A stretch of DNA of 64,000 bases from an uncultured Planctomycetia bacterium (GCA_964634945.1 CAZWMG010000006.1:736-64735); one strand, 5' to 3'; positions 39,212 to 61,927 are shown, numbered from the stretch's first letter. Notes: generated by a model not told the origin, from the letters alone. Made by a program: numbers and translations.

Positions 39212-39279
39212 GCGCAGGTATTTTTGCCATCCACTTATAACAGTAGGCAAAAAAATCCAATGCGCCGCTACAGGCAAAG
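39212..39279. repeat. conserved imperfect hairpin module (copy 1 of 2)
   Basis: 'gcgcaggtatttttgccat[variable ~16 nt]ggcaaaaaaatccaatgcgc..caggcaaag'. The same stem with a different loop recurs at 61860..61927. Confidence 0.6.
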
Positions 39280-39694
39280 GTGCCGACAATATTCTTATTT
39301 AGACATGCATATGATCCTAAAAACCATAAAAAGCAAGGAAATAACGTGCTTAGGGGGTACTGTTCTCACGATTTCACTATTAGCTTGTGTAGTGGTCTTG
39401 AGCAAAACCTTTTTTCTTAAATGTTGCAGTGTATGCTAGCAACATTTAAGGAACCTTCTGGTACAAAGCGACTACTAGCGGTTTGTTACGAATAGCATGC
39501 CTGCCGGCCGGCAGGGTTTTTCCGTATTGTTTAACTATATGGATGAGCAACAAAGCGGAATAAGCAAACATCGCTGGAGTTTGCGAACGTTTTTGTGAAG
39601 ACCACTACGCAAGCATGGGGGGCACGGATTACAACAAAATTTTCTTTGGTTATATATGATTATAAATCAGGTAAGAGGTGAAAAGATGTTGGGA

Positions 39695-40429
39695 TTAAGG
39701 ATTTGTATGTGCCGCGCGCTTCTCTATATACTCTATGACCCCCTCTTGCGTAGCGGGGGAAAGGCCTGTAAAGGCAACGCCCATTCCGGGATAGAGTTCA
39801 GGCTGAAGCATTTTATCAGCGAGCCACATTACAACGCCTTGGAATTCCTTTGGGTCCTGATCTTTTTCAAGCATGATCTCAAGGCGGACATCACTACCCG
39901 GAGGCAGGAGCTGGATGGAACGTATAAAAAGACCTGCGCCGCTTAAATTGCCCATTCTGCCTGAACAGATATGGCCTCCTTTATCAGAACGTGAATATTG
40001 AGCCAGCCTATAAACTATGGGCAAGTCTATATCAAGCCTTAAAAAACGTCGACGCCACTGCTGTTTAAGATCATCTTTCCCCAAAGAATCCACTTTGTTC
40101 GTAAAACTATCGATAGCCTTATCTATGTCAGGGTATATCTCAAAAACATCATCGAGTTTTACTACCCTGAAAATCTCTTCAACATCAAGTATTATGCCGC
40201 ATAATTTCATTATACACTTATTATTTAACGCGTTCTTATAGGTTATAGCCAGTACAGAAAGTCCGTTATAATCTACATGACTAATACCCTTCATATCTAT
40301 GATTATCTTTGAGCTGCCCTTCTCAAGCAAATCACCTACTATCTCTATAAGCTTGGATGAGTTAATATTTATCATGCCCTCTATGTTCAGGACATCGATG
40401 TCATGGAGGCGCTTTACCTTTATCTTCAT
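39695..40429 (-). CDS. STAS-PilZ fusion protein
   Basis: N-terminal STAS-like segment ('IDVLNIEGMIN...KIIIDMKGISHVDYNGLSVLAI...'). C-terminal PilZ motifs 'RRRFLRLD' (RxxxR) and 'GNLSGAGLFI' (D/NxSxGG). Confidence 0.55.
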   Translation of the reverse strand: MKIKVKRLHDIDVLNIEGMININSSKLIEIVGDLLEKGSSKIIIDMKGISHVDYNGLSVLAITYKNALNNKCIMKLCGIILDVEEIFRVVKLDDVFEIYPDIDKAIDSFTNKVDSLGKDDLKQQWRRRFLRLDIDLPIVYRLAQYSRSDKGGHICSGRMGNLSGAGLFIRSIQLLPPGSDVRLEIMLEKDQDPKEFQGVVMWLADKMLQPELYPGMGVAFTGLSPATQEGVIEYIEKRAAHTNP

Positions 40430-40529
40430 CTCCGACTATTCTCTTTTCTTCTCACCAATAAAAAAGGGGGATAGATATCCCCTTTTTTAAAAGCATTATT
40501 TTACCCAATCGAGATTATCCTTAAAAATC

Positions 40530-40904
40530 TTATTCAAACGCCTCTTGGGTTCCTTTTATCGGTGTATTAATACTACCTTCTACCGCAGTATAACCTGTAT
40601 CTACACTTCCCTTGACAGGAACAACAACTACGTCCTTTATCTTCTCAGGCTTACCGGTAACAGTCTCAACCGCGCTAACTCCTGTATTAGTAACTGTTGT
40701 AAGGCCCTGTTCTGTTGTGCGTCCCACTGTTCCTACAGCCTCCTTTGTAATGCTAAAAGGCCACTTCACAAGATCCTTTAAAAACTTTACCGCCTTGTTC
40801 TCCTGCTGCACCTGTTCCTGCTGGGCAAGCGCCCCGCTTACGCAACAGATAGATGCCGCTACAACTAAAATTACAACACAGCATATGCTACCATATCTCT
40901 TCAT
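40530..40904 (-). CDS. small secreted hypothetical protein
   Basis: Signal peptide 'ICCVVILVVAASICCVSGALAQ' and a Thr/Val-rich body. Confidence 0.35.
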   Translation of the reverse strand: MKRYGSICCVVILVVAASICCVSGALAQQEQVQQENKAVKFLKDLVKWPFSITKEAVGTVGRTTEQGLTTVTNTGVSAVETVTGKPEKIKDVVVVPVKGSVDTGYTAVEGSINTPIKGTQEAFE

Positions 40905-40980
40905 ATCGCTTCACCTCTCTTTTTATATATATTAGTCTATATAAACATTCAGCGCAAGCAAAAAATCAAGGATGTGTCAA

Positions 40981-41403
40981 TTATCCGCGCTCGCCTGATC
41001 GATAAATGGTATCACATAAAAACTTCAAAAACGTATTCTTATTATCTTCTTCTATGTCTGTAAAAGCGACACCGCAATTATACATACCTTTCTTATTAGC
41101 AGGGACGGTCCAGACTACCTTGCCATTACAATGAATAGGGTTTGGCGCCTCCGGAGCATACATATCGATCGCCGTATCAGTACCAAAGGTGAGTTTCCTA
41201 TCAACATTTACCATCATGCCGCTGGCACTTACATTTTTCACATGCGCCTTTATTTTTTCAATGCGGCCTTTTTTCTTTATGCTGAATATGGCAGGCACTA
41301 AGACATCTATGCGTATATAGTAGCGCTGTTCCTTGTCACCTGTCTGACGGCTGCTCTTTCTCTTTTCCTTTAGAGAATTTTTAGTATTTTTAATTTTTAC
41401 CAC
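40981..41403 (-). CDS. PilZ-domain protein
   Basis: 140 aa. 'QRYYIRIDV' and 'KNVSASGMMVNV' (DxSxGG-like) are PilZ motifs. Confidence 0.5.
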   Translation of the reverse strand: MVKIKNTKNSLKEKRKSSRQTGDKEQRYYIRIDVLVPAIFSIKKKGRIEKIKAHVKNVSASGMMVNVDRKLTFGTDTAIDMYAPEAPNPIHCNGKVVWTVPANKKGMYNCGVAFTDIEEDNKNTFLKFLCDTIYRSGERG

Positions 41404-41505
41404 TTCACATACCCCTTGAAAAAAAACGAAGAAATATCATTTGTATCTATCAATAAGATATTTACTTCGCTTTTCACAGTATTTAAATATTTTACTCGTT
41501 AAACC

Positions 41506-41859
41506 CTATTTTTCCTCAAATACGAACTCAGGTTGCAATATAGGGCTGTAGTCCTGTGGCATTGGAAAGAGGAATGTTACTGTATCATACGCGCCGGCGC
41601 CTGTTCTTACTACCGCCATGCCAAGGCCCTTTAATGTGCCGTATGTTATACCCATTAAAGGGTTATTGGTATCTACGCTGGTATCATATATATTCATAGG
41701 TAACTCTACCCAACCGGTTACTATATTGACAATACCTCTGCCTAGTTTCTTGCCCATCTTCTCTACAACGCTACCTTCTTCGGCAAATACCGGTAAAGCT
41801 ATCGCCGCAACGCATAACACTACCAAACATGTTATTAATGACCTTGTACCTCTTCTCAT
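41506..41859 (-). CDS. TIGR04073-like (exosortase-system-associated-like) small secreted protein
   Basis: 'KLGRGIVNIVTGWVELPMNIYDTS...GITYGTLKGLGMAVVRTGAGAYDTVTFLFPMP' follows a signal peptide. Confidence 0.5.
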   Translation of the reverse strand: MRRGTRSLITCLVVLCVAAIALPVFAEEGSVVEKMGKKLGRGIVNIVTGWVELPMNIYDTSVDTNNPLMGITYGTLKGLGMAVVRTGAGAYDTVTFLFPMPQDYSPILQPEFVFEEK

Positions 41860-41999
41860 GTCTCTTCCTTTTTTTTAAAATGACTTATATCTCTTGTATT
41901 TTAGTTTAACAACAGAGAAAGCTTTTGTCAAGGCAAAAACCTCCCCTTATAAAAATTGCAACACGACAAATAACTACAAAATCGCTGTTTATAATGATA

Positions 42000-42755
42000 T
42001 CAAATAACCTTATTTCTCAACTGCCCTATATGCTCTATATCAACTACAACGTTATCACCTCTTTGGAGTTCTCCTACGCCCTTAGGTGTGCCTGTGGTTA
42101 TAATATCACCGGGCAGAAGAGTCATTATCCGCGAAATAAAAGAGACAAGATATCCAATATTAAAGATCATATTAGATGTAGGCGAAGATTGGCGCATCTG
42201 GTCATTGACATATAACCTTACTAAAAGATCGGATGGATCTATGCCTGTAACAATGTATGGGCCTACGGGAGCGAAGGTATCAAATGACTTTGCCCTTGTC
42301 CACTGTATATCTTTTTTCTGAAGATCGCGTGCGGTAACGTCATTAAGGCACGTATATCCTAGTATATAATCAGAGATCGACTCCTGCTTAACAGCCTTTG
42401 CTTTTCTTTTTATAACAATAGCCAGTTCCGCCTCGTAATCGAGCCTGGCAATTGACTCAGGATAGATTATATCATCTTCAGGCCCTATAACCGCGGTAGA
42501 GGGCTTTAAAAATAACGTAGGATCCTTGGGCAGATCCATGTTAAGTTCCTTAGCGTGGTCCTTATAATTTAAACCGGCGCATACTATCTTTGAAGGTATG
42601 ACCGGCGCCAGGAGCTTGACCTTATCCACGGAGAGTACCGTATCAGTAAACTGAAATTCATCCGCAAAGATGGAATTCCTAAGAATTCTTATATTGTCAC
42701 CTTCCAGCGCGCCAAAACATATCTTGTTATCATGCTTTATTCTTGCTATTTTCAT
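42000..42755 (-). CDS. fumarylacetoacetate hydrolase (FAH) family protein
   Basis: 'DYEAELAIVIKRKAK' and 'GYTCLNDVTARDLQ...PGDIITTGTPKGVG' are FAH-family motifs. Confidence 0.8.
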   Translation of the reverse strand: MKIARIKHDNKICFGALEGDNIRILRNSIFADEFQFTDTVLSVDKVKLLAPVIPSKIVCAGLNYKDHAKELNMDLPKDPTLFLKPSTAVIGPEDDIIYPESIARLDYEAELAIVIKRKAKAVKQESISDYILGYTCLNDVTARDLQKKDIQWTRAKSFDTFAPVGPYIVTGIDPSDLLVRLYVNDQMRQSSPTSNMIFNIGYLVSFISRIMTLLPGDIITTGTPKGVGELQRGDNVVVDIEHIGQLRNKVI

Positions 42756-42764
42756 ATAAAATAC

Positions 42765-43541
42765 CTACACTTGGAACCTCTTCATATATTCTATATCCAT
42801 TAATAGGTCCTTGTTTGAATGTGGTTCAATTGTTATGACAGGCTTTTCCTTATAAGTATCTATCTCCGCTAAAAAAGGCTCGATATCTAAGGAACCTTCT
42901 CCCAGCACAAGATGCTGATCCTCTTTTTCGTCATTATCCGATAGATGAACCTCGCCTATAGAACCCTTTGGATACATTCTCAAGAGATCTTGCCAGTTCT
43001 CTTTTCCAAATATAGAGTAATGCGCCAGATCAAAACATGCCTTAAATAGTGGATATTCCCTCAATATCGCGATAATCGGCTCCGGGGAGTCATCCTCTGA
43101 GTTCTCTATATATACTACTATATTGTGCTTTTGAGCAACCGCGTTTACATTGGACCAGACCATCTTTGAAAAGTTGAACCATTCATCAAAACGCCTTTTA
43201 TGGTAAACCGGGTCATAATGGCTATGAAGAACAATATCATTGCATCCTAATCCAACACATAGCCTGAGCGCCTCTAAGATGCGTTCCTGCGATAATGCCC
43301 TTACCTTCTTATCTGAGCTGCCCGGGCATATATCCATAAAAGGGCCGTGGATCCTGATTAAGACGCCCATTTCCTTGAAGCCGTTCTTAACGCGTTCTAT
43401 ATCCCGCTGTTTATGGTCATCAATAAACGCGGAATTTATATATAACTCGCAATTTACTTTTAAGTCTAGATAATCATCAAGGCCATCAAGCAGCCTGTAA
43501 ATAGGCATATGAAAATAAAGCCTTTGTGGTGATATATTCAT
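42765..43541 (-). CDS. sugar phosphate isomerase/epimerase (xylose-isomerase-like TIM barrel)
   Basis: 'IVLHS', 'VYIENSEDD', 'FDLAHY' and 'EVHLSDN' match the AP-endonuclease-2 / TIM-barrel pattern. Confidence 0.6.
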   Translation of the reverse strand: MNISPQRLYFHMPIYRLLDGLDDYLDLKVNCELYINSAFIDDHKQRDIERVKNGFKEMGVLIRIHGPFMDICPGSSDKKVRALSQERILEALRLCVGLGCNDIVLHSHYDPVYHKRRFDEWFNFSKMVWSNVNAVAQKHNIVVYIENSEDDSPEPIIAILREYPLFKACFDLAHYSIFGKENWQDLLRMYPKGSIGEVHLSDNDEKEDQHLVLGEGSLDIEPFLAEIDTYKEKPVITIEPHSNKDLLMDIEYMKRFQV

Positions 43542-44080
43542 TTTTTGCTTTCTCTCTGGTGCATAAAGTTATCTCGAATCCGAGTAAATATACTTATATA
43601 TTCATCTGTCCTGTAATCCGGATAGGTGTAATCACAGGGCATAAATCGTTTCTTACGAAACGAGAGAGTAATCTCAGCGTATATACCTTGATCTATATAT
43701 ATCCTGTGGCTATAATCCTTTGTTGATGCCAGAACGAGCTTTGCCGCTGTAATATAACCGGGGTCTATATTAACCGGCCGCTTAAGCTTGCCCTTCATGG
43801 ACCGCGCTAAACGAGCCTCCATATTATTAGTTTTAATCTTTATTGAGGCAAGGCGCGCGGGATCTACAAGCTTATCAAAACTTAAAAATACCCTAAAGAG
43901 GTCTCTGCCTGTATATTTAGCGTAATAAGGCGTACAATCAAAATCGATCATACCGCTCTTGTAATCCAGCCTGCCAAATGCCTTCACCAGTTGTTTTTCC
44001 GCTTGATTGAAAAGAGATTGAGATGAAGAGATAATTCCTGTTATCAGTTTAACGGGGTGGGGTTTTTTAAGCGTACCCAT
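43538..44080 (-). CDS. DUF4416-like protein
   Basis: 'PVKLITGII...FGRLDYKS..FDCTPYYAKYTG..L.RVFLSFDKLVDP..L..IKI.TN..E...NIDPGYITAAKLVLASTKDYSHRIYIDQGIYAEITL...YTYPDY' fits the recalled DUF4416 consensus. Confidence 0.45.
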   Translation of the reverse strand: MGTLKKPHPVKLITGIISSSQSLFNQAEKQLVKAFGRLDYKSGMIDFDCTPYYAKYTGRDLFRVFLSFDKLVDPARLASIKIKTNNMEARLARSMKGKLKRPVNIDPGYITAAKLVLASTKDYSHRIYIDQGIYAEITLSFRKKRFMPCDYTYPDYRTDEYISIFTRIRDNFMHQRESKK

Positions 44081-44084
44081 GAAA

Positions 44085-44657
44085 TCAGAGTCTCTTGACT
44101 TCCCAGACTTCTCTATCTAGTATATGGGCGATATTGTCTATTTCTTTAATAGCGTGATCGATTACTTTTTTAAAATGCAGTGCGTGAATATGGGACTGTT
44201 CCATATCATAAAGTTTTCCACCCATCTCCTTAAGTATATGGTACATCTTCTTAAGCTCAAGCGCCTGCCGGTAATTGCGAAATTTGTTTTTAAGAAAATC
44301 TTTTATCTTTTTACTGTCGCCTCTTTTTATCTTTGTTATGGCGATGCCCATGCCCGGATAATATCCTACCTGCGTTTTCTTGGCAATCCAGGCAACCTGC
44401 CCCTCTAATGTGACATAACCTGAAGCGTCAGGCAGAGGCAATTTTATCTTTAACTCAGTATTAATGGGGAGAGGTTTTTGCATCTTGACAAAGAAGCCTT
44501 TCTGCGTCATATCCTTTGCCTCAAGAAAATAAGCACTCAAGGTATGATGGGTCTTCTTATCGAGCCTATAAACCTTGACCTGTGAACTGACCGCAAGTCT
44601 CTTCGCGTCTCTCCTGTCAACCTTATCAATATTATTTGAAGTGGTTTTTTTTATCAT
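44085..44657 (-). CDS. PilZ-like domain protein
   Basis: N-terminal 'RRDAKRLAVSSQVKVY' (RxxxR) and 'DMTQKGFFVKM' (DxSxxG-like) motifs. Confidence 0.45.
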   Translation of the reverse strand: MIKKTTSNNIDKVDRRDAKRLAVSSQVKVYRLDKKTHHTLSAYFLEAKDMTQKGFFVKMQKPLPINTELKIKLPLPDASGYVTLEGQVAWIAKKTQVGYYPGMGIAITKIKRGDSKKIKDFLKNKFRNYRQALELKKMYHILKEMGGKLYDMEQSHIHALHFKKVIDHAIKEIDNIAHILDREVWEVKRL

Positions 44658-44659
44658 AT

Positions 44660-45067
44660 CTATTTTTTAGTTGGCATAACCTTATCAATAACCAAGGGGT
44701 ATCTTACCTTAAGTTGATCATTTAAAAGCACCTCTACCGCGTACTCTCCCGGGTCATTAAAGCGTATATTATTAAAACGAGCCACGATACGGTGTTTTGC
44801 CTTTATACTAGTAAGGTTAAACTCCGTCTCTTTATCCTCTATCAGCTTGGTATTTCCAGGGGCGACTATCCTGGTCTTTTGCGTGAAATCTCCCACGCCG
44901 CTGCACCAACAGTTCATAACAAATAGCGCCGGATGCATAACGGGAAACGAGGCTGCCCCTATAGTCTCAAAGAGTCCTATAAGCATAAATTTACCGTTAT
45001 CCTCGCGCCTGACATCATCACAGAGGATTGAAAAAAGTAAAGTTGGTTCTATCTGTCCATCTTTCAT
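44660..45067 (-). CDS. hypothetical protein
   Basis: 135-aa ORF separated by 2 nt from the downstream PilZ-like gene. Confidence 0.35.
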   Translation of the reverse strand: MKDGQIEPTLLFSILCDDVRREDNGKFMLIGLFETIGAASFPVMHPALFVMNCWCSGVGDFTQKTRIVAPGNTKLIEDKETEFNLTSIKAKHRIVARFNNIRFNDPGEYAVEVLLNDQLKVRYPLVIDKVMPTKK

Positions 45068-45201
45068 ATTGCAATAATTATATCAATTATACGCCCTATC
45101 CGCAAGTAAAAACAAAAATTGCCCCCATCTATTTAGCCATGTATCTTTTTTAACTTTACAAAGACAACCAAAGCCATATATAATAGGTAAAAGGTAAAAT
45201 T

Positions 45202-46020
45202 ATGTATAAAGCATTCTATAATCTAAATGAAAACCCCTTTAACGTGACAAGTGACCCGCATTTTCTATATATGAGCAAACGCCACAAAGAGGCGCTTGCT
45301 TCTCTTGTATACGGTATAGAAGGGCGCAAAGGTTTTATAGAGATAACTGGCGAGATAGGAACGGGAAAAACCACCCTATGTAGGGCACTGCTTAAAAAAC
45401 TCACCTCCAGAACAAAGACAGCTTTTATACTCAACCCCCGCCTTTCAGGGATACAATTTATGAGGGCCGTCATAGATGACTTTGGTATAATCGTAAAGAG
45501 CAACACTAAAGTCGAGATGATAAAGGCGCTGAATCAATTTCTGATAGAACAGCTTCGTGAAGGCAATAACGTAGTCCTTATAGTTGATGAGTCACAAAAT
45601 CTGAGCAAGCCGCTATTGGAAGAGATAAGGCTCTTGTCAAACCTTGAGACCGAAAAAGAGAAACTCTTGCAGATTGTGCTTGTGGGCCAGCCCGAACTTA
45701 AGGTAAAACTATCTTCTCCTGAGCTGGCGCAATTAAGGCAAAGGATAGCTGTAAGATATCATATCCTTCCTATTGAAAAATCTGACATAGAAAACTATAT
45801 CAGCCGCAGGCTTGAAGTTGCCGGCGCGAAACCCAACAGCATAACCTGGAGTGACGACGCCATAGATGAACTATACAACTATTCAAAAGGAGTTCCCAGG
45901 CTTATGAATGTAGTCTGTGACAGAAGCATGCTCTTAGGCTATGTGCAAGAGATAAAAGACTTTCGTGGAAATACAATCATAAGGGCTATCTCTGAAATAG
46001 AAAATACGGTGCTCCAATGA
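45202..46020 (+). CDS. ExeA/GspA-family AAA ATPase (general-secretion / PEP-CTERM-locus type)
   Basis: 'NPFNVTSDPHFLYMSKRHKEALASLVYGIEGRKGFIEITGEIGTGKTTLCRAL' and 'LIVDESQNL...LLSN..T.....LQIVLVGQPEL' are ExeA hallmarks. Confidence 0.7.
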   Translation: MYKAFYNLNENPFNVTSDPHFLYMSKRHKEALASLVYGIEGRKGFIEITGEIGTGKTTLCRALLKKLTSRTKTAFILNPRLSGIQFMRAVIDDFGIIVKSNTKVEMIKALNQFLIEQLREGNNVVLIVDESQNLSKPLLEEIRLLSNLETEKEKLLQIVLVGQPELKVKLSSPELAQLRQRIAVRYHILPIEKSDIENYISRRLEVAGAKPNSITWSDDAIDELYNYSKGVPRLMNVVCDRSMLLGYVQEIKDFRGNTIIRAISEIENTVLQ

Positions 46021-46565
46021 GTATTATAAACGACGCGTTAAACAAGGCGATCCAGGAAAAAGATGTAAAGCCGGAGACTAAAAGCAAAACACCTCCCGCA
46101 TCCGGGCCCACAGCTCTTAACGAGACTCTGAATAAAGAATCCTCTCAAGAAAACAATGCAAATAATAAAGAGCCCTCTAAGACAAAAAGCCTCAAGTTCC
46201 ATTTGCTTGTCTATATTATCAGCCTCTTTGCAATTGCACTCATCGGATTCGCGATATTTAAATATGTCAACACCTATAATTACCGCTCTGAGATGGTATC
46301 CATATCAGAGGCTGATAAGGCATCTGGTCTATCTGTTATAACCACCGGTAAAAAGCGCGCTGAGGCCTCTCCATATACCGGAAGCGATGCATCGGGATTC
46401 TTATTAACCGGCATTATTCATGGAGAAGGCGCTTCTATGGCTATTATAAATGGTTCTGTCTATATGGCGGGTGATATAGTAGGCTCCGCGAAGATCGCGA
46501 AGATAAATGAGAATACGGTTATTGTTGAAGATGGCTCGAGAGTGCTGGAACTGAAGGTTAAGTAG
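46017..46565 (+). CDS. GspB/ExeB-like membrane protein
   Basis: Translationally coupled to the ExeA-like gene (4-nt overlap). 'MSIINDALNKA' N-terminus, a Pro/Thr-rich linker, a single TM and a periplasmic beta-rich C-terminus. Confidence 0.45.
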   Translation: MSIINDALNKAIQEKDVKPETKSKTPPASGPTALNETLNKESSQENNANNKEPSKTKSLKFHLLVYIISLFAIALIGFAIFKYVNTYNYRSEMVSISEADKASGLSVITTGKKRAEASPYTGSDASGFLLTGIIHGEGASMAIINGSVYMAGDIVGSAKIAKINENTVIVEDGSRVLELKVK

Positions 46566-46573
46566 GTCCTTTT

Positions 46574-49117: not shown

Positions 49118-49165
49118 ACTATATTTTTATAAATTAAACGCTATCCTATTCACATATTCGGATTT

Positions 49166-49395
49166 AGTATTAAGTTGTAAGCATTAAGCAACAAGCCTAA
49201 TCCTTAAATTCTAAATCCTAAGTTCTAAACTCTAAACAATATTAAATTACCAAAATCCAAATGTTCAAAAAAAAGTTTTGAATTCTAGAAATTAGAATTT
49301 TGAATTTGTTTAGGATTTAGATATTAGAGTTTAGGATTTATTATTTACCTCTTTTCCTTTTCCTTCACCTTTACCTAGTATCTTGTATCTAGCAT
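49166..49395. repeat. MITE-like palindromic repeat, copy B
   Basis: 'gtaagcattaagcaacaagcctaatccttaaattctaaatcctaagttctaaactctaaac...tttgaatttgtttaggatttagatattagagtttaggattt...cacctttacctag'. It is the inverted counterpart of copy C. Confidence 0.8.
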
Positions 49396-49402
49396 CCAGT
49401 AT

Positions 49403-51324: not shown

Positions 51325-51565
51325 GATAAAGAAAAAAAGTATAAAGTAAAAAGGATAAAGGAAAAGAGGTAAATAATAAATCCTAAACTCTAATATCTAA
51401 ATCCTAAACAAATTCAAAATTCTAATTTCTAGAATTCAAAACTTTTTTTTGAACATTTGGATTTTGGTAATTTAATATTGTTTAGAGTTTAGAACTTAGG
51501 ATTTAGAATTTAAGGATTAGGCTTGTTGCTTAATGCTTACAACTTAATACTAAATTCGAATATAT
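51325..51565. repeat. MITE-like palindromic repeat, copy C (inverted relative to B)
   Basis: 'aaaggataaag...aaatcctaaactctaatatctaaatcctaaac...caaaactttttttt gaacatttg...ttagagtttagaacttaggatttagaatttaaggattaggcttgttgcttaatgcttacaactt' is the reverse complement of copy B. Confidence 0.8.
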
Positions 51566-51587
51566 AAATAGAATAGCGGTTTTGGAT

Positions 51588-53451: not shown

Positions 53452-53539
53452 AATCTAATCTCTTATTCTTTCATGTAAAGCATTGTATTATAACACAATA
53501 AATGAGCAATACAAATAAAAAAACGCTATCTCTGCGTTT

Positions 53540-53760
53540 AGTCGTAAGTTGTAAGTATTAAGTACTAAACCCAATCTTTAAATTCTAAATCCTAAGTTCT
53601 AAACTCTAAACAATATCAAATTACCAAAATCTAAATGTCCAAAACGAAAGTTTTGAATTTTGAAAATTAGAATTTTGAATTTGTTTAGGATTTAGATATT
53701 AGAGTTTAGGATTTATTATTTACCTCTTTTTCTTCACCTTCACCTTTACCTAGTTCATAG
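53540..53760. repeat. MITE-like palindromic repeat, copy D
   Basis: 'gtaagttgtaagtattaagtactaaac...taaattctaaatcctaagttctaaactctaaac...tttgaatttgtttaggatttagatattagagtttaggattt...cacctttacctag', in the same orientation as copy B. Confidence 0.8.
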
Positions 53761-53763
53761 CAT

Positions 53764-54468
53764 CTATCGTACCGTAAGCTTAAATAAATCCGTATTTATG
53801 CTGATAGAGGGGTTGTCCGTACTCCCTGATACATACAGATCTACTTCTGAAAATTGCCCGTTTGTCTTAAAAAATACTTTTCTTACACTATCAGGTATGC
53901 CGGAAGTTAATTCATTAGATAGGATAAGCTTAAAACTATAGCCTATCTCCTTACCGCGTATCGAACCGTCTGCAAAGACCTTTAGCAACTTTCCTTCCGC
54001 GTGAAGCGCGTTTATAGTGATGTCTTCTCTGCTTATATAAAGCTTTCCTTTAACATAATCAAAACTAAGAACATCCAAAGGCTTAATAGACAACGTATCC
54101 GCTATCCCATCTATAATCTTTGAATCCGGATAAGAAAGCTTGAGGTCCTTCATATTGAATGTCAAATGTATCCTCATCGCCAGAAAAGATGATGCCTCAA
54201 TGTGCAAAATCACTTCTCCTACAGCACAATTAAGCCCCTTATTATTGGCTATGTTTAAGCCTTCTATATCTATTCTTGGCCCTAGTCCTAAATTAAAATT
54301 CTCTGTAGTTACCTTGGCATCTAGCTTGTTGGAGAGATATGCTACTAATAGCCTCTCGCTTAATAGATTACGAAAATATACAAGCGATGAAAGCAATAAA
54401 ATAATAATAACTACGATTGATATATAAGTCTTTTTCATCTTCAACCTTTGTAACTTTTGTAACCACAC
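53764..54468 (-). CDS. membrane-anchored hypothetical protein
   Basis: N-terminal anchor 'ISIVVIIILLLSSLVYF'. No clear domain. Confidence 0.4.
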   Translation of the reverse strand: MWLQKLQRLKMKKTYISIVVIIILLLSSLVYFRNLLSERLLVAYLSNKLDAKVTTENFNLGLGPRIDIEGLNIANNKGLNCAVGEVILHIEASSFLAMRIHLTFNMKDLKLSYPDSKIIDGIADTLSIKPLDVLSFDYVKGKLYISREDITINALHAEGKLLKVFADGSIRGKEIGYSFKLILSNELTSGIPDSVRKVFFKTNGQFSEVDLYVSGSTDNPSISINTDLFKLTVR

Positions 54469-54484
54469 TCTATTTGTTCTTATA

Positions 54485-56011
54485 TTACAGCGGTTTTTTA
54501 AGCTCCTCAGAGTGTTTTCTCATCAACTGCTCAAGCCTGCCATCCTTAGCAAGCAATACAAGGACCTTCACTATATCCGGATCGAACTGCTTTCCTGATT
54601 GTCGACGCACTTCTGATACAACCATGCGAAAAGGTATAGGCTCACGATATGGCCTGTAACAGACCATGGCCTCAAAGGCATCCGCTATAGCCATAATACG
54701 CGCGCCCAAAGGTATCTTTTCTCCTTTTAACCTGTCTGGGTAGCCTGTACCATCATACTTTTCATGGTGATGCAGTATTATAGGTATTACAGGCTTTAAT
54801 ACATCGAGATACTTAAGCGCCTCAATGCCCTTTACTGTATGGGTCTTTAACATCTTACGCTCTTTTCCACTTAAACCTTTTTTCTTCTGGAGCGTCTCTT
54901 CGGGGATAACCAGCTTTCCGAGATCAGGCATAAGAGCGGAATATTGAATGATCTTAAGTTCCTTTTTTGTCAGGCCCAATTCTCTGCCAAGCTCAATTAT
55001 CAGATCCTCAAAAAGGCCTGTGTGAGTATAGAGCCTTGGAAATTTTGCGTCCAGAAGATAGCCTAAAGATTTTATAGTGCCCGCTGTCAGGTCTTCCTGC
55101 TCCTTGTAGAGCTGCGCGTTTCCTATAGCGATTACAGCCTGCTCCGCGAGAGTCGTAAGTATCTCACGGTCAAATATCGTAAAATTATCAGCGCCTATCT
55201 TATCTTTGATAGTTATAACCCCGCATATCTCTTCATCCACAAGAGGCACGCTAAGGAGATTATCCTTATAAATGGATCTGCCATAACAAGCGACTTTTTT
55301 CTCAAATGGCGTTGGCTTTGTGTTAAGCTTAAATACATCACTGCTCTTTCTGTAATCAACCGAGGTAACGCAGGCGAGTTTGCTTGTCTCCTGGTCTATC
55401 ATGCATATTCGCACTCTCTCCGCTTTTAATACCTGCAGACTAAGACGCGCTATCCTGGGAAAGAGCTCCTTAAGATCCAGCGTAGAACTGATTAGGCGAT
55501 GGATAGTATGCACTGTAGATAAGGCTATCGCGCGGGGCCTTACGAGCTCATAGAGCCTGGTGAGCTCTTTTTCCCTGCTCATCTCCTTAATAATTATATC
55601 TACATAACCCGCAAGGATATCAAGAAGCGCGGGATCAGGTTTGACCTTAAGGTCATATACACCAAAGAAGCCGACACATTTTCCCTGCCTTTCAATAGGC
55701 GCGGCTATCCCATATGTATTATTTAAACTGGCTTCAAAAAAAACAGGGAACTTAGACTTCTCTGCCTGACTCATGGCCCTTAGAATGTTCTTCTTATAAT
55801 CAGCGAGAGAAAGATAGTCTTCCACGCCCCTGGCCCTCTTTAAACGTGTAATCGGCAGAATACTTCCGGGGCTTCTTTTATCCGCTACCCACCACATAGG
55901 CCTATGTAGAAATTTATCAAAGGCATCTTTTAAATCTCTGTAACCTGTGTTTTCAAGCAGAGAATGAAAGAAACTTTTATTCTTTGCTGATTTTCCTATT
56001 CGCTTCATCAT
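54485..56011 (-). CDS. GAF-domain HD-GYP phosphodiesterase (second copy)
   Basis: 'HHHEKYDGTGYPDRLKGEKIPLGARIMAIADAFEAM' plus an upstream GAF-like region. Confidence 0.75.
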   Translation of the reverse strand: MMKRIGKSAKNKSFFHSLLENTGYRDLKDAFDKFLHRPMWWVADKRSPGSILPITRLKRARGVEDYLSLADYKKNILRAMSQAEKSKFPVFFEASLNNTYGIAAPIERQGKCVGFFGVYDLKVKPDPALLDILAGYVDIIIKEMSREKELTRLYELVRPRAIALSTVHTIHRLISSTLDLKELFPRIARLSLQVLKAERVRICMIDQETSKLACVTSVDYRKSSDVFKLNTKPTPFEKKVACYGRSIYKDNLLSVPLVDEEICGVITIKDKIGADNFTIFDREILTTLAEQAVIAIGNAQLYKEQEDLTAGTIKSLGYLLDAKFPRLYTHTGLFEDLIIELGRELGLTKKELKIIQYSALMPDLGKLVIPEETLQKKKGLSGKERKMLKTHTVKGIEALKYLDVLKPVIPIILHHHEKYDGTGYPDRLKGEKIPLGARIMAIADAFEAMVCYRPYREPIPFRMVVSEVRRQSGKQFDPDIVKVLVLLAKDGRLEQLMRKHSEELKKPL

Positions 56012-57183
56012 ACCCTCTCGTAAGGCTCAAAAAGCTTCTTATACTCATCAAGCGCGTATCTATCTGTCATACCTGCTATATAATCACATATGATCGCCCT
56101 GCGCGCAGAGTCATCCTTCGCCCTTTCATAATAGCTGCTTGGCAAAAGACGTGGCTCATCAAGATAAACGTTAAAAAGTTTCACAATAAAACGCTTTGCC
56201 TTATTTGCCATACGCATCACTCTATAGTGTTTATAAAAATTCTTTAAGAGAAAATCCCGTAAAACCACCTTCTGAGAATTTAATGACGATGAGAAATCAA
56301 TTATCTTGACATCACATTTTCTGGCCTTTTCAACAGAATCTATATTGTACTTTTTTATGCGCTTCTCAGATTCACCTATAAGGTCTGTTACAAGCCTGTT
56401 TATGAGCGCCCTGATAGCCTGGTACCTTCTCTGTTCAGTGTCCATGGGTTGTCGCAGATTCTTTGTATCCAGGCTTAAGCCCTTCCATATCTCAAGTTTT
56501 TCAAGTAAGGGCTCGGATAATATCCTGCTCGTAAGCCCATCATCAAGATCGTGGCTGAAATACGCTATCTCATCCGCCACATCCACAATCTGAGCCTCTA
56601 GCGTAGGGAACTGCTTCAGATCAAATTCTTCTGTCTTAGGAGGATTATCAAAAGAGCTGCTGTGCCTGGCAATGCCTTCTCTGACCTCAAAGGTAAGATT
56701 TAAACCCGCAAACTCAGGGTAGCGCTTCTCCAGCAAATCAATGACTCGCAGACTCTGCATATTATGGTCGAACCCGCCAAAGGGCTGCATAAGCTCATTT
56801 AATATCTCTTCACCTGAATGCCCAAAAGGGGTATGGCCAAGATCGTGCGCCAGGGAGATAGCTTCAACAAGGTCCTCGTTCAATGAAAGAGCGCGCGCGA
56901 TAGTACGGGCTATCTGCGCGACCTCTAATGTATGCGTTAAACGTGTGCGGTAATAATCACCTTCATAATTTACAAAAACCTGTGTCTTGTATTCCAAGCG
57001 CCTGAAAGCGGTAGTATGCAGGACCCTCTCCCTGTCCCTTTGATACATAGAACGATACGGGTGCTCCTTCTCGTTATGGCTCCTGCCTTTACTAAGGGGA
57101 GAGCTCATCGCGTATGGAGCAAGAAGAGATTCTGAATGAATTGAACTTAGGGCCTTACTAGGCATTTTTTCGTAACCTTTCAT
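56008..57183 (-). CDS. dgt: dGTP triphosphohydrolase-like HD-domain protein
   Basis: 'RTRLTHTLEVAQIAR...ISLAHDLGHTPFGHSGE' is the dGTPase HD motif. Confidence 0.8.
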   Translation of the reverse strand: MKGYEKMPSKALSSIHSESLLAPYAMSSPLSKGRSHNEKEHPYRSMYQRDRERVLHTTAFRRLEYKTQVFVNYEGDYYRTRLTHTLEVAQIARTIARALSLNEDLVEAISLAHDLGHTPFGHSGEEILNELMQPFGGFDHNMQSLRVIDLLEKRYPEFAGLNLTFEVREGIARHSSSFDNPPKTEEFDLKQFPTLEAQIVDVADEIAYFSHDLDDGLTSRILSEPLLEKLEIWKGLSLDTKNLRQPMDTEQRRYQAIRALINRLVTDLIGESEKRIKKYNIDSVEKARKCDVKIIDFSSSLNSQKVVLRDFLLKNFYKHYRVMRMANKAKRFIVKLFNVYLDEPRLLPSSYYERAKDDSARRAIICDYIAGMTDRYALDEYKKLFEPYERV

Positions 57184-57631
57184 ATAGGCAGGACAAAGAC
57201 TCTGATATTACCTTTACGTCGCCAAGTATCGGCATGAAGTTTGTATCGCCCTCCCAGCGAGGCACAATATGCATATGAACATGCCCGGGAAATCCCGCGC
57301 CGGATACCTTTCCGACATTAACACCTATGTTATAACCTTGGGGTTTTATAACCTTGCTTAAGAGGCTGGTCGTCTTATTGAGTAAGCGCATCAGATCCGC
57401 AGTCTCAGGCGCTGAAAGCTTTTCAAGGGATGACTTGTGCTTTTTTGGCACAACCATTATATGGCCATTGTTATATGGATATATATTTAACATTGAAAAA
57501 GAATGCCTTGTCTTTTCAATGACATAACTCTTTTTCATATCGCGCGAATCTCTTGCCTGGCAGAAGATGCACCCCTGCCTCTTTCGCTGGTAAATAAATT
57601 TGCTTCTCCATGGCGCCCATATGGTTTTCAT
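57158..57631 (-). CDS. HIT-family hydrolase
   Basis: 'FPGHVHMHIVPRW' is the histidine-triad HxHxHxx motif. Confidence 0.75.
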   Translation of the reverse strand: MKTIWAPWRSKFIYQRKRQGCIFCQARDSRDMKKSYVIEKTRHSFSMLNIYPYNNGHIMVVPKKHKSSLEKLSAPETADLMRLLNKTTSLLSKVIKPQGYNIGVNVGKVSGAGFPGHVHMHIVPRWEGDTNFMPILGDVKVISESLSCLYERLRKNA

Positions 57632-57649
57632 AAGCTACTCTCCGCGTTA

Positions 57650-57775
57650 AACTCGAAATCCTAAACTCTAAACAATGTCAAATGAACAAAATCCGAATAT
57701 CTAAATTTTTTGAATTTAGAAAATTAGAATTTTGAATTTGTTTAGGATTTAGATATTAGAGATTAGGATTTAACT
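57650..57775. repeat. MITE-like palindromic repeat, copy E
   Basis: 'aaatcctaaactctaaacaatgtcaaatgaacaaaatccgaatatctaaattttttgaatttagaaaattagaattttgaatttgtttaggatttagatattagagattaggattt'. Confidence 0.75.
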
Positions 57776-58596
57776 TTATCCTTTACCTTTTCGTGACTCA
57801 GCCTCTTCCGCGCTTCTTCAAAAAACGTCTCCGCGAAACTGCTATCCCAAACCCTCTGGTTGAAATCCCTTTTCTCAACCAGATCAAGAAAGCCCTTAAA
57901 ATCTTCATAATAGCTTCCATATATATGAAAACTGTCGGTAATATCCGTATGCCTTCCAACATCAATCTTCTTGCCTGTCTTTTCTGATATACGTTGCGCA
58001 ATCTCTCTCTGTAAATCTGTAAGCGCGAATATATTCATGAATGCCGCTTTGAACGCATCTCTGGAGCGCCAGTGCGTATTCATATTAAGAAGCAATCTAT
58101 TCTCCTGAGATGATATCCTAAACCATACCCTTTGCAGGCATGGCGGGTCATCTGTCGGTATGTCAAGTTTGGGATTCCATGTTATGGCCTGCGCTCTCCT
58201 TGAGTAACTACTTTCGCTAAGCTTGTTAACAATGTAATCCATCTGGTCGATTATATCTGTTTCACTTTTGTAGGAAAAGAGCCTCTGGTGGTATGTATAT
58301 GTCCATTTTCCTTCTTCAGGGGCTATCCAATGATCGTGAACCCCATCGACAACCTCCTGCCTGTAAACCTCGAGGTCATCAAGGCCGCCTGGAAACGCCC
58401 TATGTATGCGCGGCTCTTTAAACGGGGAGTTTATAACGATTATCATTGTAGCGTCTCTGCTTGGCGGATCATCGGGCTTATCATACTCTGTCCTTACCTG
58501 CGTGCCTTCTTTCCATGTCCTGATAACCGCTTCTTCCCATGCTTCAGGTAGGGTATCTCGCTGAACCTGGATTACCGGTATCCCCTCTGTCTTCAT
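57763..58596 (-). CDS. thymidylate synthase (ThyA) family protein, divergent
   Basis: 'AQAITWNPKLDIPTDDPPCLQRVWFRIS' parallels ThyA 'IISAWNP...LPPCHAFFQFYV'. 'HWRSRDAFKAAFMNIFA' corresponds to 'YQRSCD..LGLPFNIAS'. 'DSFHIYGSY' corresponds to 'GDTHLYSNH'. Confidence 0.55.
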   Translation of the reverse strand: MKTEGIPVIQVQRDTLPEAWEEAVIRTWKEGTQVRTEYDKPDDPPSRDATMIIVINSPFKEPRIHRAFPGGLDDLEVYRQEVVDGVHDHWIAPEEGKWTYTYHQRLFSYKSETDIIDQMDYIVNKLSESSYSRRAQAITWNPKLDIPTDDPPCLQRVWFRISSQENRLLLNMNTHWRSRDAFKAAFMNIFALTDLQREIAQRISEKTGKKIDVGRHTDITDSFHIYGSYYEDFKGFLDLVEKRDFNQRVWDSSFAETFFEEARKRLSHEKVKDKVKS

Positions 58597-59084
58597 ATTT
58601 CTAACCTCACAATTGTTGGAGTTATCTTCTCACCAATCTCTAGTATACCAAATGAATTGTATGGCGCAAAGACTTTTTCAGTAGGACTGCCCGGGCAAAA
58701 ATATAGTACATCATCTATATAATCTATCTTCGGGATATGTGTGTGGCCATATATTATGCAATCTAGCTTCTCATCCTTAAACATCTCCTTAACGTAATCT
58801 ATAAGCTTATCAGGCCCGCCGTAACCGTGGGCTATGCCAACCTTAAAAGAACCTAGTTCTAAGATCTTTTTTACGGGAAACCGCCTACTGATGATAGCGG
58901 TATCCATGTTACCGACAACTCCTTCTACCGGGGCTATCTTCTCAAGCTCTTCGATTACAGAGAGTTCCGTACAATCCCCCGCATGAATTATAAGGTCCAC
59001 GCCTTTTATCCCTTCAAGGAGCGTATTCGGGAGAGCGTTACATGTCGCGGGAATGTGTGTATCTGATATAACAGCTACTTTCAT
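58593..59084 (-). CDS. metallophosphoesterase (YfcE/MJ0936 family)
   Basis: 'MKVAVISDTH', 'IIHAGD' and 'IIYGHTH' match the calcineurin-like phosphoesterase motifs. Confidence 0.75.
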   Translation of the reverse strand: MKVAVISDTHIPATCNALPNTLLEGIKGVDLIIHAGDCTELSVIEELEKIAPVEGVVGNMDTAIISRRFPVKKILELGSFKVGIAHGYGGPDKLIDYVKEMFKDEKLDCIIYGHTHIPKIDYIDDVLYFCPGSPTEKVFAPYNSFGILEIGEKITPTIVRLEI

Positions 59085-59171
59085 AATATTGATCCTTTTT
59101 CTGTTGCCTCTTATGTCTTGTGCCTTGCACCTTGGGGCTCTTGCGCCTTACGCCTTGTGCCTTCGTATGCC

Positions 59172-60806
59172 TTAAGCTATAAGAGCGTTATACCCTTTAA
59201 AAAATTCAAAGAGCCTGGACATGTCTTTATCGGTCCAGACCCAAAAATGCTTCTGTTTCGCCAAAAGCCTTGCCGAGGAGCTTATATCTCTCGGCGCTAT
59301 TAATATGACCTTAGGCTTATCGTACTTGAGCGAGCGTATCTTTTCTGATAGGCCATAGACATCTTCTTCCGCGACCTCTTTGCTCGATATTATAAAAAGG
59401 CACTTCTTTTTCGCCCTCCCTGTTATCAAGAGGCTGTTTCCATCAAGCTGTTTAAACCGCATAGAGCTGACACGAGGAAGCACGCGGACCCTTTCATCAA
59501 TAAAAAATTGATCGTCATTAAAAGAGCTAATCAGCTCAATTATGCGCTTATCCAGGCTCTTCTTTCTTTCCGCGCAGGAGATAGCGATCCTCTCTTGTAT
59601 CTCATCAGCGTAATCCGCTCTATCCTGCTGCGGTATAAAATCAAAGCAGAGATTGCGCGGTTTTGATTTTACCTCTATCCATAACCTGAATACCGGATCC
59701 GTAATACTATAAAGGGCCCCGCTCTTTGAAACCATCCCGAGCTCTAATAGACTGTTAATTATCTTATTTAGCTCTGTCGCGGACATGGTGTTCTTGTTCA
59801 TTATATCCTTAATGCGCGCAGGAGAGGAAAAAGACGCCAATATATCCAGAACGTTTGTTTGTGGCGTTGCTGTGTTAATTGATGTAAGCATATTAGTAAA
59901 GAACTGGCCTATCGAGCCGCCGGGGTAAAAAAGAAGCTCCGCGATAATATTACTTAAGTTTTTAATCGCTATTCTCTCCGCGCCATAACCTCTGGCTGAT
60001 TTTATCTTATTTGCGATTGAACTTAAGTAGAAAGGGTGGCCACCGGTAAAAGTCAGTATAAAATCCCTGATATCATCTGAGAAGGCTATGGACTTACATA
60101 TTGAATGTAAAAAATCTCTCGCCTCTAACGGGCTAAACGCGCCTATATTAATTATCTTAAACCCGCCAAAAAGCAATGAAAGTTTTTCTGAAAGTATCTT
60201 CTTGGCGCAAAGAGTGTTTGAGCTTGAAAAAATAAAAAGCGTCTTCTGCTGCACCATTATCTTTTGACCTAGAATCCGGAAAGGCCGCTTAACGGGTAAG
60301 CCTGATATGAGGCTGAATTCATCAAGCACGATTATTGGAAAATATCCTGATTCCGCGTTTAAAATAACATTCAAGTCCCAAACCTCTGAAAACGCGTCAT
60401 CATAACTCTTCTCATCGATGAGCAGATTAACTCTTTTTATCAGATCGCAGCTCTTAGGAAATATATCCTTCGCGCTCCTGAGAAGGTATTGTAATTCATA
60501 TGATTTCTTAAGCCTCTTGCGCTTCTTAAGGCTGTGGTATAAAAGCCTAGTCATAACATTGTAAAGTAAATCTTTGATACCGGCGTTTTTCAGGTTTAAG
60601 TAAACAGGAAGGAGCTTTTTTGAGTTGTCTATCTTGCTCAAAAACTGCAGCAACAAAGAACTCTTGCCTATTAACCCGTTACCTATCAACGCTATGTTAT
60701 GACGATATCCATCCTGGAAAGCTGAGACATTTTCATGCAAGGACTTTAGGATGTCCTCTCTGGCAAAAAATTCTTTTCCAACTACAGGTTCTTCAATATG
60801 CATCAT
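59172..60806 (-). CDS. P-loop ATPase, archaeal-ATPase/AAA-like
   Basis: Walker A-like 'IALIGNGLIGKSSLL' and Walker B-like 'PIIVLDEF'. Long alpha-rich C-terminal region of 544 aa. Confidence 0.45.
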   Translation of the reverse strand: MMHIEEPVVGKEFFAREDILKSLHENVSAFQDGYRHNIALIGNGLIGKSSLLLQFLSKIDNSKKLLPVYLNLKNAGIKDLLYNVMTRLLYHSLKKRKRLKKSYELQYLLRSAKDIFPKSCDLIKRVNLLIDEKSYDDAFSEVWDLNVILNAESGYFPIIVLDEFSLISGLPVKRPFRILGQKIMVQQKTLFIFSSSNTLCAKKILSEKLSLLFGGFKIINIGAFSPLEARDFLHSICKSIAFSDDIRDFILTFTGGHPFYLSSIANKIKSARGYGAERIAIKNLSNIIAELLFYPGGSIGQFFTNMLTSINTATPQTNVLDILASFSSPARIKDIMNKNTMSATELNKIINSLLELGMVSKSGALYSITDPVFRLWIEVKSKPRNLCFDFIPQQDRADYADEIQERIAISCAERKKSLDKRIIELISSFNDDQFFIDERVRVLPRVSSMRFKQLDGNSLLITGRAKKKCLFIISSKEVAEEDVYGLSEKIRSLKYDKPKVILIAPRDISSSARLLAKQKHFWVWTDKDMSRLFEFFKGYNALIA

Positions 60807-61480
60807 GGTAGATAATAATATGGGTTTTTTGGTTCGTGACCTTTTCTTATCTCAAAATGGAGTGACGGCGTGGTGGCCCTGCCGGTATCTCCCCCTTTGG
60901 CGATTATCTGATTCTGCTCTACATGATCACCACAATCTACAAGGTTCGCCGCGTTATGCGCGTAGAGAGTAGAATAACCATTTTTATGTTCTACTATAAT
61001 AACCTTGCCCATGCCCTTGACTTTATCATCACAAAAGACAACCTTGCCTGACCTGGAAGCGACTATAGGCTGATTCTTCCTTACCTTTATATCTATTCCC
61101 TTGTTTTTTACTCCATCTATCTTTGAACCATAATATGATATGATCTTCCCTTTTAATGGCCAGATATAGCCCTTTTTACTTCTAACCGCCGCAGGGGCAT
61201 ATTGGTTGACCCTGACAGTCTTTTTAGCTCCGGGGATAAGGAGTTTTTGCCCAACAGCAATGTCTGAGGCATCAGGCATTCTATTGGCATCTATAATCTT
61301 CTTGATGTCAGTATGATATGCCTTAGCTATTCTCCATAGCGTCTCCCCTTTAAGTACCGTGTGATAGGCACCTTGAAAACGCTGGGCGGGTAAAGCCTTG
61401 GTAGTAATAGTCGGCGTAGATGTAGTAGCACACCCTGATAAAAGAGCTGTTAAAAATATTATGATCAATAAGTTTTTCAT
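60803..61480 (-). CDS. LysM-domain M23 peptidase lipoprotein (NlpD-like)
   Basis: Lipobox 'LLSGCAT'. LysM segment 'YHTVLKGETLWRIAKAYHTDIKKIIDAN...GQKLLIPG'. M23 segment 'GIDIKV...GKVIIVEHKNGYSTLYAHN...GDTGRATTPSLHFEIR'. Confidence 0.8.
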   Translation of the reverse strand: MKNLLIIIFLTALLSGCATTSTPTITTKALPAQRFQGAYHTVLKGETLWRIAKAYHTDIKKIIDANRMPDASDIAVGQKLLIPGAKKTVRVNQYAPAAVRSKKGYIWPLKGKIISYYGSKIDGVKNKGIDIKVRKNQPIVASRSGKVVFCDDKVKGMGKVIIVEHKNGYSTLYAHNAANLVDCGDHVEQNQIIAKGGDTGRATTPSLHFEIRKGHEPKNPYYYLP

Positions 61481-61491
61481 CTAGCTTTTGT

Positions 61492-61568
61492 AACCTTTTT
61501 AACCTTTGCAACCTTTGCAACCTTTGCAACCTTTTTAACCTTTTTAACCTTTGTAACCTTTGTAACCT
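61492..61568. repeat. tandem array of about 8.5 copies of a 9-bp unit AACCTTT[GT][CGT]
   Basis: 'aaccttttt aacctttgc aacctttgc aacctttgc aaccttttt aaccttttt aacctttgt aacctttgt aacc', immediately upstream of the nlpD-like start codon. Confidence 0.85.
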
Positions 61569-61678
61569 AATATGGAGCGGGCAGGCTTCGCTTTTAAAAC
61601 ACGTTTTATCGTGTCCAAGCTACGCCAGCCTATCCGGCGAATACACACCGGATTAGACTTATCAACAGCGAAGCAGGA

Positions 61679-61753
61679 TGGAGCGGGAGACGGGGTTCGA
61701 ACCCGCGACGTCAAGCTTGGGAAGCTTGCATTCTACCACTGAATTACCCCCGC
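61679..61753 (-). tRNA. tRNA-Gly (anticodon CCC), CCA-encoded
   Basis: Reverse complement is GCGGGGGTAATTCAGTGGTAGAATGCAAGCTTCCCAAGCTTGACGTCGCGGGTTCGAACCCCGTCTCCCGCTCCA. It folds as a cloverleaf with a 7-bp acceptor stem, a GGTTCGAA T-loop, and an anticodon loop 'TTCCCAA' carrying the CCC anticodon. Confidence 0.8.
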
Positions 61754-61859
61754 ACAAATCTCATCACGCGCAACGCCTTGGCATTTTTCACAAATAATTA
61801 TCTATTTCTTTGCAATCAAAGCAGGCAACTTGCATCTGCTCATATCTCTTGCCTCCACA

Positions 61860-61927
61860 GCGCAGGTATTTTTGCCATATATTTAAAATCCATGGCAAAA
61901 AAATCCAATGCGCTGTTAAAGGCAAAG
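61860..61927. repeat. conserved imperfect hairpin module (copy 2 of 2)
   Basis: 'gcgcaggtatttttgccat atatttaaaatccat ggcaaaaaaatccaatgcgc tgttaaaggcaaag'. The stems are identical to 39212..39279 and the loop differs. Confidence 0.6.

Follow-up and report, generated by a model that had tools for sequence, protein, structure and literature searches.

Dispersed palindromic repeats such as REP, REPIN, ERIC, BIME and Correia are known chiefly from Proteobacteria and from a small number of other cultured groups. Hairpins formed in RNA by ERIC and Correia sequences affect mRNA stability or serve as substrates for RNase III or RNase E, and binding of gyrase, IHF and Pol I to BIMEs is documented. REPINs are palindromes with conserved arms and a less conserved spacer, in which compensatory changes are frequent and which form hairpins in single-stranded DNA or mRNA (Bertels & Rainey 2011, PMC3116915). 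Their REP arms are short palindromes with the tetranucleotide GTAG or CGTC at one end (PMC3733652). Here we describe a repeat, termed E, that occurs three times in 64 kb of DNA from an uncultured Planctomycetia bacterium (GCA_964634945.1, CAZWMG010000006.1:736-64735; this whole stretch is referred to as the window) and recurs in related genomes and metagenomes. We consider it likely that E represents a previously undescribed family of dispersed non-coding hairpin intergenic repeats, of the REPIN/ERIC/BIME-like kind. It offers a clean, well-populated case from an uncultured lineage of the Planctomycetes-Verrucomicrobia-Chlamydiae (PVC) group, probably Candidatus Omnitrophota. A literature search covering Planctomycetes and Omnitrophota found no paper on such repeats.

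An earlier inspection of the window from its sequence alone (the sequence-only reading) had picked out two stretches in which conserved, mutually complementary halves enclose a non-conserved loop, and had taken them for a structured RNA or a protein-bound palindromic site rather than a coding repeat. Both stretches are present as described, but the quoted string starts ∼10 nt before the coordinates given for it, the palindrome is longer (∼105 nt, or ∼150 nt including two unequal flanks), and the window holds a third copy, diverged and in the opposite orientation (Table 1). With a profile built from the family, nhmmer returned exactly three matches in the window, at 39187-39286 (+), 61836-61937 (+) and 61980-62079 (−), and the orientation of the asymmetric core was unambiguous (96 bits on one strand versus 31 on the other). 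A repeat search pairs 39189-39279 with 61837-61927 (91 nt, 79% identity); here copies 1 and 2 share GCGCAGGTATTTTTGCCAT and GGCAAAAAAATCCAATGCGC at 100% identity, with 6 matching positions in the 15 nt between these blocks. The window contains two exact occurrences of the 17-mer GCGCAGGTATTTTTGCC, and allowing up to three mismatches gave four matches, two of them unrelated, compared to 0.25 expected from shuffles. When 300 nt around copies 1 and 2 were aligned, the likeness ended at the element edges. Because the similarity is confined to the element, these copies do not derive from a larger duplication. On either strand, copies 1 and 2 fold as long hairpins, whether treated as RNA (z = −3.7 to −8.2) or as DNA (z = −4.7 to −9.7). 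The conserved, complementary halves noted earlier are real and do not make up a coding repeat. Single-stranded or transcribed E would fold to a stem of ∼40 bp.

To find out how widely E is distributed, we scanned species-representative genomes with its left half, which gave 67 loci, six of them true copies, in three species-level metagenome-assembled genomes (MAGs), and metagenome contigs with its right half, which gave 55 matches at 43 loci, two of these loci being chance matches. A single contig of 28 kb carried as many as five copies. A looser pattern extracted 42 distinct copies. The 60 profile matches fall into 20 locus clusters, some of them lumped via shared modules, and we therefore estimate that there are 20–25 independent E loci. 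The wider pattern search suggested by the sequence-only reading thus yielded ∼40 distinct copies in related genomes and metagenomes, and the alternative it had named, just two copies within a larger duplicated segment, does not hold. E is a dispersed repeat family rather than a structured RNA bound to one locus, be it the riboswitch gap or tRNA-Gly.

Nearly all copies that could be classified (48 of 53) sit between co-directional genes, an arrangement that is the default gene layout in E-bearing genomes. The distance from stop codon to E is mostly 24–115 nt, with a middle value, read off the per-locus list, of ∼64 nt. Neighbors are housekeeping genes, namely hisD/hisB, proS/rimP, tsaD, leuCD, mdh, lpdA and trxB; genes lying between paired copies are all housekeeping, with no mobile-element genes, and no E was found in viral contigs. 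Homologs of the window PfkB are assigned by their sources to Candidatus Omnitrophota or Omnitrophica, and two E-bearing MAGs carry a Planctomycetia label. Based on these names and labels, the host lineage is an uncultured clade of the PVC group, probably Candidatus Omnitrophota.

The consensus of 38 copies reads GCTTATGCCTCTTGCCTTCRCAGCGCWGGTATTTTTGCC-loop-GGCAAAAAAATCCAAWGCGCTGCTAAAGGCAAAGGCATAAGC. Within it, the inner segment and its internal loops are invariant (GGTATTTTTGCC / GGCAAAAAAATCCAA): no variation across copies was seen in the inner 7+2 pairs, the GG/CC pairs or the internal loops. The apical loop is variable and ranges from 15 to 19 nt, and one half differs consistently from the other (T5 versus A7, with different internal loops). 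In the consensus structure, which has 28 pairs, 94.4% of cells are paired, compared to only 37–44% when the pairing register is slid by 1–3 columns. Compensatory double changes occur in 15 of the 28 pairs, located in the outer stems. We counted 83 double-change cells, versus 22.7 in column shuffles, and none of 500 shuffles reached 83. These data confirm that the proposed pairing is kept by compensatory changes. The varied loop length, the covarying stems and the invariant, asymmetric core together speak for recognition of E as a folded single strand and against an operator in the form of rigid double-stranded DNA.

Such an operator, a palindromic site read as double-stranded DNA by a dimeric transcription factor or nucleoid protein with TTGCC...GGCAA half-sites as determinants, would account for inner blocks that are invariant in all copies and genomes, for the two nested TTGCC/GGCAA inverted pairs, and for conservation at orthologous sites above that of genes. 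However, a loop of 15–19 nt changes the phasing of the half-sites, the outer stems change in sequence yet keep their complementarity, which a reader of double-stranded DNA does not need, and the asymmetry of the halves is itself conserved. We regard an operator of this kind as very improbable.

Outside the palindrome lie two unequal ends, EndA, ∼(TTGCAATT)TCCGCAGATAAGAAT, and EndB, ∼CATAAAATGATATTTT(AATTGCAA). In a subset of copies, TTGCAAT(T) stands before EndA or after EndB, forming a TTGCAAT(T)/(A)ATTGCAA pair ∼23 nt beyond the palindrome. With respect to gene direction, EndA is upstream of the core at ∼15 of 16–17 independent classifiable loci, the classification being partly by eye. For copy 1 the EndA flank was assigned by eye and by alignment score, as automatic classification was ambiguous.

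Given a stable hairpin with strong covariation, and copies in transcribed intergenic space, one might take E for a structured, strand-specific RNA, be it a small RNA gene or a cis-regulatory RNA such as a leader (of the riboswitch operon or of the tRNA-Gly precursor). If so, the core should be oriented consistently with respect to its genes, which is not the case: relative to flanking genes, it is sense in 14 cases and antisense in 20, and counting per locus gave a similar result. Mismatches on the transcribed strand show no bias toward G·U (25) over A·C (18). E gave no Rfam match at the gathering threshold, and below it only spurious miRNA-precursor models appeared (15–31 bits, versus thresholds of 62–200). 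No promoter or terminator was found framing E, with a sigma-70 scan giving nothing above shuffles. Sigma-54 (−24/−12) and Bacteroidetes-type (−33/−7) promoters in the conserved halves were considered by eye and rejected, their spacings being wrong. The mixed orientation, the lack of G·U bias and the absence of Rfam, promoter and terminator matches make a strand-specific RNA gene unlikely, and E also adjoins many unrelated genes and flips in place between relatives (see below). We consider either form of strand-specific RNA very unlikely; an RNA hairpin that acts independently of orientation, or a hairpin at the DNA level, is possible. Hence, of the original proposal of a structured RNA or protein-bound site, a structured element recognized as a hairpin holds, whereas E is better explained otherwise than as an RNA gene or a cis-regulatory RNA.

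The position of E shortly past stop codons in gene arrays, together with a long, stable hairpin that could in principle work in either orientation, also brings to mind an intrinsic (bidirectional) terminator, with likeness across loci arising by chance. The T and A runs of E lie within the stem, however, and neither strand has a U-tract after it. No terminator call covered an E hairpin, and the only call close to one spans a small part of the stem-loop, a sub-hairpin at E2's left edge. At the tsaD locus, a ribosome-binding site and start codon follow E within 26 nt, leaving no room for a promoter. E must therefore be read through at this locus, a point that would also suit a structured RNA, and is not a strong terminator. 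Moreover, blocks of 20 nt that are 100% identical from locus to locus and between species are not a feature of ordinary terminators. It is highly unlikely, then, that E is a set of terminators.

Comparisons between relatives (contigs designated by L numbers) show that E is gained and lost, and also that it is retained. L096, 90% identical to the window over 19.2–25.6 kb, carries E, and the window (at 24.8 kb) lacks it; at this site L096 also has a second repeat module and an E arm that is duplicated (44 nt), with a perfect 52-nt palindrome in the window. Similarly, L050 has E, and the corresponding window site (35.6 kb) does not. In the outgroups L124, L126 and L127, which share the thiC-pfkB-tRNA-Gly-LysM/M23 synteny (PfkB 66–77% identical), E is absent and the pfkB-tRNA gap is 9–105 nt, compared to 393 nt in the window. 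No clean filled-versus-empty junction was obtained from the comparisons of the window with L096 and the outgroups, the outgroup sequences being too diverged. Where E is retained, it can be strongly conserved. The block holding copies 2 and 3 of the window (E1 and E2) shows 93% identity among contigs in which the flanking genes reach 76–90%, and E1 is 96–100% identical, loop included, to orthologous copies in five related contigs. The loop, which the sequence-only reading regarded as non-conserved, does differ between copies 1 and 2, but it follows a loose family consensus (ATCTATTTAGATCAT) and is 100% conserved among relatives at the tRNA-Gly locus. For tsaD, identity is 97% in the stems, compared to 47% in the loop.

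Two orthologous loci show the whole core flipped in place against conserved flanks: L098:6344 versus L069:5693, with flanks 88% identical, and L085:1092 versus L077:2953, with flanks 82% identical. In L098/L069 the flank keeps the outermost bases of the stem, which fits an exchange between the two arms. On a larger scale, the entire E1-E2 block occurs in both orientations among relatives (Table 1), in a pattern independent of relatedness, and is missing in more distant relatives with shared synteny. The breakpoints of this inversion are inverted repeats of ∼19 bp that contain TTGCAA, a third TTGCAA lying at the block center (61955-61960).

These observations raise the question of whether the E1-E2 block is a programmed invertible switch (an inverton), with the single-copy flips reflecting the same site-specific recombination. 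Speaking for this are the 330-bp length between TTGCAA-containing repeats, the two orientations over six related contigs irrespective of relatedness, the greater conservation of the block than of its flanks, and one same-strain contig that ends exactly at the right boundary. On the other hand, no recombinase gene lies nearby, the block contains no conspicuous promoter-like site, and the right repeat has been lost in L051 and L100. At both window loci, contigs of the same strain, from several samples (at least four), share 100% identity and one orientation, and inversions that distinguish genomes can be infrequent events in evolution. On balance, we think a programmed switch unlikely; if the flips or the E1-E2 inversion were programmed, E would be of greater interest. 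We note in passing that GTTTCGTTGCAAT-N-RAGCAGG is a motif found repeatedly close to E copies and at the inversion boundaries (35888-35908; 61808-61825; L050, L105 and L095). A by-eye consensus check rejected it as a sigma-54 site, its spacing being unsuitable.

How, then, does E compare with described families? REPINs are closest in organization, and in its working E would resemble ERIC, Correia and BIME elements. Like E, they are symmetrical extragenic elements of ∼100 nt with two conserved arms, compensatory changes and a predicted hairpin in single-stranded DNA or mRNA; they are multi-copy, occur in clusters and as nested copies, leave singlet or truncated remnants, and are kept at orthologous sites. 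The differences are several. The invariant blocks of E flank the apical loop rather than forming the element ends, its arms are not short REP palindromes, it has no GTAG or CGTC, no RAYT was found in the window and 49 E-bearing loci, and its flanks (EndA/EndB) are fixed relative to genes while the core flips. Given the absence of the REP tag, E should not be filed as a REPIN. ERIC/IRU of enterobacteria and Correia/NEMIS of Neisseria resemble E as imperfect palindromes of 100–150 nt that lie in transcribed intergenic regions in either orientation and form long RNA hairpins, but they have no sequence relation to E and come from a different phylum. Correia elements also carry defined terminal inverted repeats, a TA target duplication and IHF sites, none of them evident for E. 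With the BIMEs of E. coli, E shares a mosaic organization, in which E units are combined with recurring motifs (EndA, EndB, TTGCAAT...AGCAGG, and the A and B blocks described below) and can alternate in orientation, as E1 and E2 do; BIME units, however, are REPs of ∼35 nt, compared to ∼105 nt for E.

Recombination of integron attC sites takes place on a folded single strand. Like E, these sites are imperfect palindromes, comparable in length, for which sequence counts less than structure, extrahelical bases and a variable terminal loop. We rejected attC as an identity for E, as the consensus lacks GTTRRRY/RYYYAAC, no cassette array or intI is present, the neighbors are housekeeping genes, and both orientations occur. 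[quoted passage not shown] E shows their presence/absence polymorphism (window versus L096, versus L050, and versus L124/L126/L127); candidate terminal repeats are confined to the subset with the TTGCAAT(T)/(A)ATTGCAA pair, and no transposase-bearing relative was seen.

Several points weigh against placing E among mobile repeats of the REPIN/ERIC/BIME-like kind. A phmmer search with IS608 TnpA (a query validated as Y1_Tnp, 145 bits) found no Y1/HUH transposase in 1372 open reading frame (ORF) segments from the window and 49 E-bearing loci (∼0.5 Mb). In the same segments, a search for an HUH...Y motif and a RAYT-like query, which failed Pfam validation and is weak as a test for RAYTs, gave no match either. 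The most conserved part of E is central, not terminal as in REPINs and MITEs, and the GTAG/CGTC tag is absent from the consensus of 38 copies, whose outer ends vary (GCTGC, ATTGC, GTAC, TCTC). We found no empty site in which EndA and EndB are joined without E, no target-site duplication and no autonomous parent element; the flanks carry motifs seen throughout the family instead of duplications particular to each locus. A host function would explain the strong conservation at orthologous sites no less well than a selfish element would. Many of the copies in metagenomes stem from one strain or from close ones, and hence copy counts do not represent independent events.

With these points considered, a dispersed hairpin repeat family still seems to us the likely identity of E, and a mechanism can be sketched. 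The invariant, asymmetric inner part would be the recognition site for a protein that reads the folded strand, which could be a transposase-like enzyme, as for REP and REPIN, or a host factor. The flips would come about when one arm recombines with the other, or by template switching between them. In polycistronic transcripts, the hairpin may act in a REP- or ERIC-like manner, as a 3′-end barrier or processing site, in either orientation. It is also conceivable, though we doubt it, that E is a domesticated, protein-recognized hairpin cassette whose orientation is switched via its own arms, with E1-E2 as a small invertible switch. If true, an uncultured phylum would punctuate, and perhaps phase-vary, its housekeeping operons by means of a flip-flop palindrome without a RAYT-type enzyme. 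As a likely repeat family, E is useful for studying how such elements persist, as it combines covariation with an invariant asymmetric core, conservation above that of neighboring genes, and flips in place. For annotation, E is best masked as a repeat family, rather than each copy being called a candidate small RNA.

Table 1. Coordinates of E copies, associated repeats and neighboring features in the window
Feature	Position	Strand	Remarks
E copy 1	39185-39290	+ (strand of asymmetric core)	profile search 83 bits, E = 5e-25; hairpin folds
E copy 2 (E1)	61833-61938	+	profile search 96 bits, E = 6e-29; hairpin folds
E copy 3 (E2), diverged, opposite orientation	61980-62081	−	nhmmer 68 bits, E = 2e-20
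EndA-like flank of copy 1	39291-39310	−	minus strand reads ...TCTAAATAAGAAT directly before the palindrome; upstream side in gene direction, as in most copies
E1-E2 block, 330 bp	61806-62136	both orientations among relatives	inverted in L013, L080, L088; direct in window, L051, L100
Left inverted repeat of E1-E2 block, TTTCTTTGCAATCAAAGCAGG	61805-61825	+	TTGCAA at 61810-61815
Right inverted repeat of E1-E2 block, TTGTTTTAATTGCAAGGAA	62110-62128	+	TTGCAA at 62119-62124
c-di-GMP-I riboswitch, downstream of copy 1	38898-38990	−	Rfam 80.8 bits; context, not part of repeat
tRNA-Gly(CCC)	61679-61753	−	immediately downstream (transcription direction) of E1-E2 block; context, not part of repeat
A block	35696-35771 / 39530-39605	inverted arms	recurring module, no Rfam match
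B block palindrome, GTACAATTTTAC...GTAAAATTGTAC	35973-36003 / 39140-39170	inverted arms	recurring module, no Rfam match

Nearly all genes of the window lie on the minus strand; those neighboring the E copies are housekeeping genes, and none of the window genes encodes a recombinase or transposase. Copy 1 is found within a 917-nt gap between a STAS-PilZ gene (40429→39695) and the c-di-GMP-I riboswitch, with a promoter-like site for the riboswitch transcript ∼130 nt downstream of the copy. Copies 2 and 3 lie between the PfkB kinase gene and tRNA-Gly(CCC), E2 lying 66 nt past the pfkB stop codon. The sequence-only reading had placed the second copy downstream of tRNA-Gly; as this gene is on the minus strand, the copies are in fact upstream (5′) of it. 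Copies 1 and 2 are ordinary family members, with no demonstrated special link to riboswitch or tRNA. The riboswitch itself is followed by two ORFs of 94 aa, one of 148 aa and the gene for an ECF sigma factor, and PilZ-domain genes lie just upstream of it (STAS-PilZ, 39695-40429; PilZ, 40981-41403), forming a small c-di-GMP signaling neighborhood.

The window genome appears rich in hairpin repeats. A segment of ∼3.9 kb has arms, 35696-36019 and 39124-39605, that are inverted repeats of two further modules, the A and B blocks, both of which recur in contigs L050, L075, L079, L093 and L096. At the site where L096 has an A block and E, the window carries its perfect 52-nt palindrome (24855-24906; 26+26, no spacer) in a divergent promoter region. 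The 44-nt direct duplication in L096 (1297-1340 and 1541-1584), made up of an E arm plus flank, surrounds an A-block insert of ∼200 nt, as if this had been inserted into E. Between tRNA-Gly and the LysM-M23 peptidase gene, at 61478-61577, are about eleven tandem 9-nt units (TTTGTAACC / TTTGCAACC / TTTTTAACC); on the gene strand they are purine-rich, AGGTT(G/A)CAAA, and similar AAGG-rich tracts flank E in L098 and L101.

A second family, unrelated to E, consists of long AT-rich intergenic palindromes built of TAAAC/CTAAA-like units, at 18552-18744, 49136-49401, 51357-51581, 53537-53776 and 57648-57788. Their arms reach 225 nt with 98% complementarity (49136-49360 versus 51357-51581), and they bracket housekeeping genes, such as aroB. 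A further set of repeats, three tandem units of ∼170 nt with 70–75% identity at 9528-10045, lies inside a 1046-aa ORF (9347-12487) and probably represents coding domain repeats.

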